This document shows, piece after piece, positions 1 to 37,608 of a stretch of DNA of 64,000 nucleotides. The notes below the pieces were generated by a model. The model did not search any database. It was not told where the DNA came from and saw only the letters and a program-made list of their open reading frames with translations. The stretch spans positions 1 to 64,000 of the forward strand of contig JAYWIR010000104.1 in NCBI GenBank assembly GCA_036172245.1. The letters run 5' to 3'. Made by a program: the position numbers and the translations under genes. Source of the DNA: Raillietiella orientalis. Lineage: Eukaryota. Each line of letters begins with the position of its first letter. The first letter of the stretch is position 1.

Positions 1-114
1 TTCCCACCTCGTTTCGTTCAGCAAAGATGCGGCTCCTCCCGAAGGGAAAAAACCTAAGGTGCATGAACAACTGGCGTCCCATCACAATAGTGAATCCGGA
101 CGCCAAGTTGCTAG
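1..114 (+). pseudogene. RT fragment of an L1/Tx1-like element (host0), interrupted by elements A and B
   Basis: Frame 1 reads FPTSFRSAKMRLLPKGKNLRCMNNWRPITIVNPDAKLL, homologous to the RT N-terminal motif of the neighbouring ORF2s. It stops at element A's 3' terminus. Confidence 0.85.
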
Positions 115-320
115 TTGCCACCTGGTCACGCCGGGGCGTTTATTAAAAATTCTCTTTGATCCGTGGTACGAGACCCCACTACGGCCAACTCAACTGGACC
201 TGCCGGATCGCCCGTACGCAGACCGGCGCGACTCTCCTCGGCAGCGGAAGGGGGTGGGGGAAAAAACAAAAAGAAAAATGAAACATAAAAACAAAAAGAT
301 TTGGGAGGGTTGGGGAGGGA

Positions 321-35010: not shown

Positions 35011-35625
35011 AGAAGGACACAGGTTTGAAGCCCAACTGTGCCCGGTGTGGGGAGCAGGAATCCTTCCCGCACCTTTGAGTTGACTGTGTTGCCCTCCGGC
35101 CCCTGTGGAAACGTCTCGGTTCCACCTAGAAATCCTGGAACGTAGCCTTCCCAGAGACGTTTTTCGGCTCCTCTTCGTGCAGGGACGCCCTGCAGCCAGC
35201 CGCTGTAATAGCAGCTCTCTGCTGCGTACGCGATATTGTGGCAGCTTGGAGTGGATCCGACGAAGCAGAGGATGTTAACGGAAGGGATGCCATGGAGTAT
35301 GCAGTTCGCTTTCTGCGAATAGCATCCCGATGGCCCCACCTGGAAAATCTGTACCAGAACCTCGTCGGCATCCTGCATACGATGGAAGCTCCACGCAACG
35401 GACAGTGAACCCTTCCCGGCCCTCCAAATGACAAGTGTTTTTACTTTTTCTTTTTTTTTATTTTTGTTTTTTTCCTTAACCCCATCCGTTGACGTGGAGT
35501 GTCAAGTCGGTCTGCGCATCGACTACTCGACAGCTCCATAGAATTTTTGGCCGCATAGGGGCCTTGTACCGCTAACACTGTAAGTTTTTTTTTCAAATAA
35601 ACGCCCCGGCTTGACCGGGTGAAAA
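35011..35625 (+). mobile_element. Element M: 3' fragment
   Basis: PNCARCGEQESFPH; U-rich UTR; terminus AATAAACGCCCCGGCTTGACCGGGTGAAAA. Confidence 0.85.
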
Positions 35626-37608
35626 CGTCGAACTGTACGTTGCGCAGAGCATTTTCGACGGCTAGTTTGAGCAGGAAGGCCACTCCGCGGGAGTGGTTTC
35701 CGCCTAATCGCCAAAGTAGCCACCCCCCTGTGAGGCTCTCGATCTCCTGGACGTCCTCTCCTCTGAGTGCGTGCGTCTCTTGAAGAAGAGCCAGGTCGAA
35801 AGGTCGCAGGGTGTCGGCCACGCCGCGCTCTTGCCTTCGTCACGCAGCCCGTTGACATTCCAACAGGCTATGCGTAAGTGCCAGCAAGAGGCGATTCCAC
35901 GTATCACTCTGTTGATGGTGTTGGCGATGTTGTTGCCGTCTCCTGTTCGGGCAGCGGATGGTCGTTGTCCTGGTCGACAAGCGTCGCTTCGGCTAAAGGA
36001 GTCTCGGCGGTTCCTCGACGTTGTACACTAGTATCCTCTGGCGGGGCTCTTTTTTCCACCGAGGAGTCGCGTGACCTCGCAGACATTGTCTCCTCGTTCC
36101 CTGAGGGCATTTCCTCCTCCACCTGAGGGGGAACGACGCGCCCAGGGTTCTGGGACTTCCGCTCCGCCTTCCTTTTCGGGAGGGCAATGAAGGGAGCGCT
36201 TTTGGCTTCCGCTTCGGACTCGAATGTTTCCTGGCCTTTGACTTCCACTGGCCGCCTCACAGTCTTGACATCCTTGAGGGGCTGCTTGAAGCTGACCAGC
36301 ACTTCCTCCGCCGCCTGAGCGAAATTCTTTCCGCCGCTATTCACGCACGTGTCGCGGGATTCCTGTGGCGCTTGCGCGGTGTCAACGACGACTGTGCCTT
36401 TCGCGTTTGCCGATCGAAGTTCCATCGACGACACGCGCTCGTTGTTAACGCGGCATTCCTTTGGAGCATCGCCCGGCGAAGATTTTACCTTCGTTTTCGC
36501 GGATATCTGCGGAATTTTCGCGTTTTTCATTGTTTTCTTTTTAGGGGATTTGATTTTGGTTGGGACCAGTTTCCAGCCATCTTCGTCGATTCCCTGTTCA
36601 GGAGTCGCTTCTTGCGATTCCGTGCTAGGATCTACGACTGCCTTGTTAGCTGATAGTTGATCCTCTGCTTGTTTATTCCTATTGTTTTCTTGAGCCTTCT
36701 CCCCCTTTTTATTTTCCAGGTTTTCTGGCTGTGAAGCGACGTTCTTGGGGCACACAACGCTAGTGTGGCCCTTTTCGCCGCATGTTGGGCACGTTGCATC
36801 CGGACATCTCTTCCGTAGATGCCCGAAAGTCATGCATTTCCTGCAATATTTTTGATTCTTAACGAACCAGATATCAACGAGCTCATCGTTGACTTCCAGT
36901 TTGTGGGGAAGATCGATGTTACCGCGGAGAGTTACTCGCGCGGCCATGCGCCCACTGAATGCGCCTCTGAAACTGAAGGCGTTGGGCTTACGTCACATCG
37001 CGTAAATCTCCGCGTATTTGTTCAGTTCTGTGCGGATAAATTCTTCGTCCATGTGCAAGGTTGTACCAGTTAGGTGGATCACTATTGAGTGATCCACCGT
37101 GTGTGGTAGGAGATTACGTTTCTCGAAAGGCACGGGCGTGCAGAGCAGTTGATGCGTGAGCGCTGCATCTCTGCAGATGAGCTCCGCAAACTACCCTTCG
37201 CTACGCACCGAAAGCCACGTGATCTCCTCATCGGAAATGCCCATCCTACGGATGGCATTTCCGAATTTGCAAGTTGTGATTGCAGAATACAAGTTGCCTA
37301 CCTTATATAGAAGATGTGGATTGTAGCCCTCCTTGATGTAGGCTGAGAGTTCGGCGGCCACTTCGGGACACGCCGACGCAGCAAACTTGTTTCAAGCCCT
37401 CGCCGGAACGGCGGGGGCAGATTTGCTGATGGGGCATGCAGCCACATCCACGGGATGGGGAGAGGTGGGTCTCACGTCTCCCGTCGCAGGTTTTGCGGCG
37501 TCTTCTGGCATTTCTGCCTTCCAACGGCCGCCTTCCAACACACACTAACTACTACTCGGCTTCGCTTTCAGGAGCTCGCCAAAAACGCGTGCGACCACCA
37601 GGCCTCCC
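35626..37608 (-). mobile_element. Element N: 5' part (ORF1 and start of APE); outermost member of the nest
   Basis: ORF1 35904-36947 with CRKCMTFGHLRKRC and CPTCGEKGHTSVVC; APE IACWNVNGL, LLQETH...NVQFD. Confidence 0.88.

Follow-up and report, generated by a model that had tools for sequence, protein, structure and literature searches.

Why should every long interspersed nuclear element (LINE) that has entered another LINE lie antisense to it? The question is raised by a stretch of 64 kilobases (kb) from Raillietiella orientalis (assembly GCA_036172245.1, contig JAYWIR010000104.1, positions 1 to 64,000 of the forward strand), a single locus whose full length is referred to here as the window. 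Tblastn searches with both open reading frames (ORF1 and ORF2) of one of its elements, A, and with ORF2 of O, an element of a second family, show that the whole of positions 1–37,595 is tiled by fragments of L1/Tx1-like LINEs. Read from the left, this nest consists of host0(+), A(-), B(-), C(+), D(-), E(+), F(-), E(+), G(-), J(+), I(-), H(+), I(-), K(+), L(-), M(+) and N(-), with E and I each present in two parts. Only A and B, and farther to the right Q+P and O2, are neighbours on the same strand; otherwise the strands alternate.

Antisense junctions and clean insertions

Thirteen LINE 3′ ends are present in the window, and ten of them adjoin internal sequence of a different LINE, in every case in antisense orientation to that element: A and B in host0, C in D, F and G in E, J and H in I, K in L, M in N, and O in Q+P, an element that O has split into its parts Q and P. 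The other three (those of Q+P, O2 and R) face non-LINE DNA, and there is no LINE junction in the sense orientation. The initial annotation had also counted ten antisense termini, and the count holds, although one of its cases, P inserted in O, was misread; P (45785–45900, +) is the tip of the Q 3′ untranslated region (UTR) with a hairpin-type 3′ end, cut off by O(-) with a target duplication of 9 base pairs (bp). The 3′ end of P itself faces non-LINE DNA, and to its right there are 2 nucleotides (nt), a 15-bp duplication and then O2(+) on the same strand. Three intact 5′ ends that had been reported at E/D, I/K and L/M are present, at 12,552/3, 30,952/3 and about 35,005–35,010, respectively. 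The ten junctions represent seven distinct sites: S1 and S2, which are described below, amino acids (aa) 313 and 412 of E, ORF1 of I, aa 152 of N, and the Q 3′ UTR. All seven are antisense, and the chance of 1/128 originally calculated for this at 50:50 is correct; on the same expectation 10/10 antisense junctions have a probability of 0.001, and the four inserts with both flanks kept, taken alone, 1/16. The antisense pattern is real in the sequence and is unlikely to have arisen by chance.

Four of the inserts (A, F, H and O) retain both flanks, and all four are antisense. A (114–6064, -) is full-length, with its 3′ UTR at 114–320, an open ORF2 of 1242 aa at 321–4049 and ORF1 at 3908–5911; it follows host0 (1–113, +), an ORF2 fragment identified by tblastn that spans about aa 497–533 in the numbering of A and ends at S2, and it is flanked by a 14-bp target duplication (100–113 and 6065–6078). 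F (15404–20950, -) is also full-length, with a frameshifted ORF2 at 15640–19235 and ORF1 at 19217–20860, and lies in E between part 1 (12553–15403, +), which has an intact 5′ end, ORF1 and ORF2 up to about aa 313, and part 2 (20951–21207, +), which continues from aa 313 to about aa 412 and is collinear with H. Its target duplication is 3 bp (TTT), and GTTT is common to host and tail. H (23974–29766, +; ORF1 about 24007–25320, ORF2 about 25963–29556) is full-length, decayed, and located in ORF1 of I, of which part 1 (23212–23973, -) runs from S1 (ORF2 aa about 118) into the end of ORF1 and part 2 (29767–30952, -) from ORF1 aa about 415 to the intact 5′ end. The duplication here is 0–2 bp and host length is conserved; with H taken out, I has 797 nt between two anchor points shared with F, versus 804 nt in F. 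O (40227–45784, -), a full-length element of the second family, lies antisense in the 3′ UTR of Q+P with its 9-bp duplication at 40218–40226 and 45785–45793; Q (38973–40226, +) extends from ORF2 aa about 888 to the middle of the 3′ UTR, P is the remainder, and Q+P is itself inserted in non-LINE DNA. These four inserts are ordinary products of target-primed reverse transcription (TPRT). O2 (45918–51762, +), an O-family element located 2 nt past the Q+P 3′ end, has a 15-bp duplication (45903–45917 and 51763–51777). Variable target duplications (14, 3, 9, 9–11 and 15 bp) and 5′ truncation, the latter in eight copies (B, C, G, J, K, M, Q and R), are both hallmarks of TPRT.

The larger architecture is less regular. 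The six-level nest proposed at the outset is recognisable on the right side, where N, M, L, K, I, and then H and J read as successive insertions, but the mirror halves on the left are partly absent. N (35627–37595, -) runs from ORF2 aa about 152 through ORF1 to a 5′ end that is uncertain by about 15 nt, beyond which there is an ankyrin-gene fragment, and M (35010–35626, +; ORF2 aa about 1113 to the 3′ end) lies antisense in it at that ORF2 position. On the left, D has ORF2 aa -20 to 118 in common with L and I, and we rejected it as the missing half of L or I, or as a long duplication, because its identity to L drops from 86% over about 260 nt to about 60%; its identity to I is 69%. At B|C (9,385/6) and G|J (about 21,990) two truncated elements meet head to head, and these are not simple nesting junctions; G (21208–21990, -) extends from its 3′ end to ORF2 aa about 1066 and is antisense in E. 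In twin priming an inverted piece derived from the same RNA lies just upstream of the direct piece, and the two joints resemble it in being head-to-head inverted junctions within LINE insertions. However, B (aa 196 to the 3′ end) and C (aa 797 to the 3′ end) overlap and each has a complete 3′ end, and G and J are of different families with no blastn match to each other, so classical twin priming produced neither pair. The head-to-head joints and the missing halves may stem from later deletions, from paired priming events or from errors of assembly.

Reuse of insertion sites and choice of strand

Two of the sites have been used more than once, an aspect absent from the initial annotation. S2 is in the reverse transcriptase (RT)-coding region, after ...AAGTT(G/A)(C/A)TA, and A, B and C all have their 3′ ends at a single nucleotide of it, the first two in host0 and C in D. 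B (6079–9385, -) extends from its 3′ end to ORF2 aa about 196 and used the same host0 nick as A, C (9386–10900, +), head to head with B, extends from ORF2 aa about 797 to its 3′ end, and D (10901–12552, -) from S2 (ORF2 aa about 533) to about 20 codons before the ORF2 start. S1 is in the endonuclease-coding region at ORF2 aa about 118, where J (21991–23211, +; ORF2 aa about 904 to the 3′ end) in I and K (30953–33048, +; ORF2 aa about 608 to the 3′ end) in L end at the same nucleotide; L (33049–35009, -) runs from S1 through ORF1 to an intact 5′ end at about 35,005–35,009. By self-comparison with blastn, A, B and C are 94–97% identical and J and K about 85%, the others being 65–80% identical to one another. 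B matches A at 96.6% over the 3′ 1.5 kb and C matches A at 97%, D is 79% identical to A at the nucleotide level, and in its stretch host0 matches D at 72% and both A and F at about 75%. For the inserts at S2 the identity is 96–97% over 1.5 kb, versus 72% for their hosts, and at S1 the inserts are 85% alike versus 69% for the hosts over 150 nt and 52% farther out. Because the inserts are much more alike than the hosts, these are independent insertions at shared sites and not copies of one junction. Independent insertion at the same nucleotide of a repeated target, by which site-specific LINEs are recognised, is thus found at both S1 and S2, and within the window the A family is at S2 in 3/3 cases and the J/K family at S1 in 2/2. 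Moreover, A sits exactly at the host0/B junction and O2 is separated by 2 nt from the Q+P 3′ junction; a site can therefore be re-cut next to a resident copy. We note that the Q+P and O2 nicks, 2 nt apart, fall within the same TTGCTAT stretch, which resembles the TTGCTA that flanks S2.

Contigs from one public DNA run (coded X1, with 6% of the sampled words; no RNA runs were listed) provide evidence from outside the window. On window positions 1–20,000 there are 364 contigs (14 at 99% identity or above, 41 at 95–99%, 113 at 90–95% and 196 below 90%); they are short and mostly 85–95% alike, and cannot confirm the junctions of the window itself. In two of the 15 joints listed, a 3′ terminus meets a different element whose strand is truly the opposite one. 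The first is a joint between 12157 and 15404, which connects the terminal base of F to the exact S1 position in D, the position in D having been mapped independently. The second joins 6079 to 17749, placing an A-family terminus or duplication edge in F, 8 nt from S2, and whether this is taken as a 3′ or as a 5′ junction, it is antisense. Both joints connect elements that are on the minus strand in the window, and neither combination is present there, so both come from other loci. The remaining 13 we interpret as length variants or as a change from one homologous copy to another, including a joint between 110 and 8410 that represents an uninterrupted S2, and there is no sense junction among the 15 listed. 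The earlier suggestion that these elements use their relatives as targets of fixed polarity is supported by two sites reused to the nucleotide in diverged hosts and by these two joints. Strict and reciprocal, the terms in which it described the nesting, have as their basis seven sites in one locus and the two contig joints, and the families are not strictly site-bound.

The sequence at the nicks does not account for the choice of strand. In 11/13 cases the cDNA starts with G, and the nick seems to fall before G and often before GT, as in the pre-insertion sequences of F (^GTTT, where the caret marks the nick), Q+P (^GTGT) and the D site (^GTAT). These primer motifs are rarer on the sense than on the antisense strand (GTT, 561 versus 775; GTTT, 151 versus 230; GTNT, 384 versus 478), with 40–45% of occurrences on the sense strand. 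Because the motifs are commoner on the antisense strand, a mild bias towards sense insertion is expected, and composition does not explain the antisense pattern; this speaks against a strand-biased endonuclease motif, one of the causes originally put forward, and under the motif-based expectation the probability of 7/7 antisense sites is about 0.0035. Pairing of the 3′ end of the insert with the host downstream of the nick received no support in 15 comparisons (the lowest tail probabilities were 0.04 and 0.08, and the rest at least 0.26).

The 3′ ends themselves are well defined. In 11 copies there is a hairpin-type end consisting of AATAAA, a short stem-loop and an A-rich tail ending ...AAAC, without poly(A); in the stem-loop there are seven predicted pairs, two of them with compensatory changes. 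The A family has a distinct tail, with GGCAAC where the others have GAAAAC. A covariance model built from the 11 ends and run unfiltered over the 64 kb recovers exactly these 11 and none further up to E=10, and O and O2 have a separate type of 3′ end of their own, which brings the inventory to 13. The conserved stem-loop after AATAAA is probably the element recognised by the RT. At the opposite end, full-length copies begin with a common motif, and the 5′ ends of E, I and L share it with A, F and H. A metagenome scan with the 3′-end pattern returned four loci (L001–L004), none of them LINE-like by tblastn, and we rejected these as chance matches.

Proposed mechanism and competing explanations

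The reading that we favour, with a probability of about 0.5, is that the cluster was built by hot-spot TPRT into the sense (coding) strand of related LINEs. Several related L1/Tx1-like families would insert repeatedly into one another, the ribonucleoprotein (RNP) preferring a limited set of hot spots within LINE DNA. Insertions of the A family are at S2, those of the J/K family and of an F-like family at S1, and at least five other sites were each met once. The host sense strand would be cut at an H^G step and used as primer, with 1–4 primer bases pairing with the conserved ...AAAC tail behind the 3′ stem-loop. If the host sense strand is always the primer, the new copy is always antisense to its host. 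A family-linked specificity on the primer side of the nick would fit both the site reuse and the re-cutting at resident junctions, and by analogy with other systems read-through 3′ tails carrying host-antisense sequence may reinforce it. We infer that an enzyme or RNP selects the sites and the strand. Seen in this way the finding represents a variant of target-specific LINE behaviour, an interpretation that has moderate support. In a more ambitious form, which we put forward tentatively and consider less probable, a guild of LINEs would home into sites in each other's endonuclease and RT genes, priming from the coding strand of the victim, as parasitism or as use of a safe harbour with a strand rule, and this rule might come from priming on the displaced strand of transcribed copies. 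If true, these would be the first site-specific LINEs to target another LINE's own gene, and their activity would build nests of alternating strands.

Several observations weigh against hot-spot TPRT into the sense strand. It leaves the location of all the sites on the sense strand unexplained, there is no clear common motif at the sites beyond H^G, nucleotide conservation does not peak at them (the 30-nt stretch upstream of the nick ranks at the 28th–85th percentile), and they have no G-skew or purine signature. An F-like family is found at two different sites, and the M/QP-like and O families have inserted in non-LINE DNA too, so that targeting is a preference and not absolute. For B, C, G, J, K and M, which account for six of the ten, the second half of the host is not found where simple nesting would put it, and the junctions at 9,385, 12,552 and 21,990 are as given by the assembly. 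Finally, there are only seven distinct sites behind the figure of 1/128, the pattern was spotted post hoc in one window among many scanned, and sense junctions are possible in nine further joints and 249 loose ends of X1.

The main alternative is priming on the displaced strand of transcribed copies, where the sense strand of a transcription bubble or R-loop is accessible and is nicked or primed whatever its sequence, and the newest active copy is favoured. This would account for an antisense rule that holds across families and at sites without a common motif, for the order on the right side of the nest, where each insert lies in the previous insert as a preference for active copies predicts, and for the retention by hosts I, L, N and E of intact 5′ ends, where a promoter would be; an effect of replication direction appears to be ruled out, since the strands alternate within one locus. 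We nonetheless consider it unlikely, because the exact reuse of nucleotides in diverged hosts, at S1 as at S2, argues for recognition of sequence or structure and not to general exposure of a strand, and because Q+P is 5′-truncated and so lacks a promoter of its own, yet was hit antisense; the lack of local G-skew or purine enrichment also speaks against it. Chance with hindsight is a further explanation that we think improbable, in which orientation is random, the seven sites happen to agree, and the reuse reflects ordinary endonuclease hot spots like those of human nested repeats. The numbers of distinct sites and clean inserts are small (1/128 and 1/16), and hot spots and roughly two-fold orientation biases are documented for human nested LINEs and short interspersed nuclear elements (PMC2836564, in part). 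However, the motif expectation leans towards sense insertion and puts 7/7 antisense at about 0.0035, there is no sense junction among the 13 inventoried 3′ ends, and X1 provides two further antisense joints from other loci and no sense joint among those listed.

Complex events or rearrangement offer a different account of the same junctions. Complementary DNAs primed at two hosts and then joined, template switching in second-strand synthesis, or later deletions between nests would each give the 5′ part of a host in sense and an insert in antisense by construction. The B|C and G|J joints, which are not classical twin priming, are consistent with such routes, as is the presence of hosts I, L, N and E only as 5′ parts up to the site, D not being the other half of L or I. 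Against this, the four inserts with both flanks and target duplications are likewise all antisense, and the intact 5′ ends of I and L beside K and M are what plain nesting predicts, making this a distinctly improbable source of the pattern. Very improbable is a filter acting after insertion, through which sense inserts would be lost as direct repeats that recombine or slip out, whereas antisense inserts form only inverted repeats and persist. Hosts and inserts are related (65–86% identical in parts), but the identity is mostly 65–75%, which is too low for efficient recombination; F has no blastn match to E at E<1e-10 and is antisense all the same. No recombinant scars were noticed, though no search was aimed at them.

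Related systems, element families and neighbouring genes

LINEs of the Tx1 clade insert at fixed positions of other transposons, examples being Tx1L in the piggyBac-type Tx1D and Tx1-9_AMi in Harbinger, as well as Keno, Kibi and Koshi, and it has been argued that co-transcription of the target strengthens site-specific integration (PMC4494074, in part). The elements described here resemble them in being of the apurinic endonuclease (APE) type, in having a fixed position in a repeated element, and in having a defined 3′ tail and no poly(A) (PMC4494074, in part). They differ in that the targets are coding regions of other LINE families, always on the sense strand, and in that several families share hot spots and some also enter non-LINE DNA. 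Zepp and ZeppL, L1-type LINEs of green algae, insert into their own copies and build clusters (PMC8226300, in part, citing Higashiyama 1997), and the nest is likewise a local cluster of L1/Tx1-like LINE copies inside existing LINE copies. However, Zepp forms tandem arrays mostly of 3′ ends (PMC8226300, in part), whereas in the nest the strands alternate, there is no poly(A), and tandem same-strand arrays of poly(A)-bearing 3′ ends are absent. In the human genome, L1 insertions in L1 number 21,559 in sense and 9,899 in antisense (Levy, Schwartz & Ast 2010, Table 3, PMC2836564, in part), and the orientation bias of nested L1 and Alu is explained by the endonuclease and the primer sequence. Nested insertions are there also concentrated at particular target positions with a bias in orientation, but the human bias is about 2.2-fold towards sense and follows the A-rich strand (PMC2836564, in part), in contrast to the 10/10 antisense junctions reported here, which run against the motif expectation. 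As in homing of the R1/R2 type, reuse and re-cutting would follow from read-through tails that pair with the primer strand (PMC4494074, in part), with the differences that the target here is a LINE and not ribosomal DNA, and that no read-through transcripts were seen. A literature search, with supplements outside its scope, gave no report of strict antisense LINE-in-LINE nesting, and none of LINEs whose targets are coding sites in other LINE families and whose polarity there is always antisense.

The target choice of APE-type LINEs is usually ascribed to short endonuclease motifs and primer pairing, and a strand rule that opposes motif frequency would need another determinant, such as RNP recognition, read-through tails or transcription of the target. 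Nucleotide-exact reuse inside the genes of other LINEs would be a sign of competition, or of use as a safe harbour, among LINE families, and nesting of this kind would give a simple route to dense two-strand repeat clusters, the sort that serve as sources of small RNAs in arthropods. S1 and S2 represent defined substrates for in vitro work on LINE target recognition.

From their sequence we assign the elements provisionally to the APE-type non-long-terminal-repeat retrotransposons of the L1/Tx1-like group. ORF2 of A has matches above the Pfam cut-offs to Exo_endo_phos (3.3e-11) and RVT_1 (1.6e-16), corresponding to an N-terminal apurinic-type endonuclease and a reverse transcriptase, and ORF2 of O has both as well. 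There are weaker matches, under the Pfam gathering scores, to zf-RVT in four copies including A (E values of 1.3e-4 to 3.4e-3) and to zf-CCHC in two ORF1s (about 1e-3 and 8e-3). The ORF1 frame of A is 667 aa with a weak CCHC knuckle, and its likely ATG is near 5982, with in-frame stops at two places about 19 and 22 codons farther on (5912–5985, -). A looks young despite these two stops, with its open ORF2 and copies that are 96–97% alike. The ORF2 products of O and A are about 26% identical in aa, placing O and O2 in a second family, and G and Q are about 70% identical in nucleotide sequence. A protein search with A ORF2 gave eight matches, all distant and the closest 31% identical, and a protein-atlas search with it only generic RT and endonuclease clusters; Rfam and tRNA scans of the window gave no match. 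The N-terminal part of O2 ORF1 (45926–46300, +) contains tandem repeats of about 120 nt that encode a repeated peptide motif, a region unrelated in sequence to the same part of O.

The nest stands out in base composition, with GC at 55–63% in the left 37.6 kb and 39–54% in the right part. The contrast is sharp, positions 1–37600 being at 55–63% versus about 39–47% in the surrounding DNA (46000–64000), and the hairpin-type LINE families are far richer in GC than their genomic setting. To the right of the nest there is a single-exon ankyrin-repeat gene (60663–62840, +) encoding 725 aa and ending in a PRANC-like C-terminal tail. Among named proteins, those closest to the tail are an ankyrin protein of Wolbachia (51%) and an ankyrin-1-like protein of an ant (45%); these relatives suggest an arthropod host, and the gene is possibly of symbiont origin. 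A partial copy (37608–38972, -), about 85% identical, borders the nest and has been hit by Q+P, and both Q+P and O2 are located in the upstream region of an ankyrin-gene paralogue. The remaining element, R (56658–57371, +), is truncated and has a hairpin-type 3′ end, and its flank gave no match to LINEs. On the same strand, some 460 nt past this 3′ end, there is a piggyBac-type transposase fragment (57829–58392, +; DDE_Tnp_1_7, E 5e-13), an arrangement that recalls Tx1L in the piggyBac-type Tx1D.

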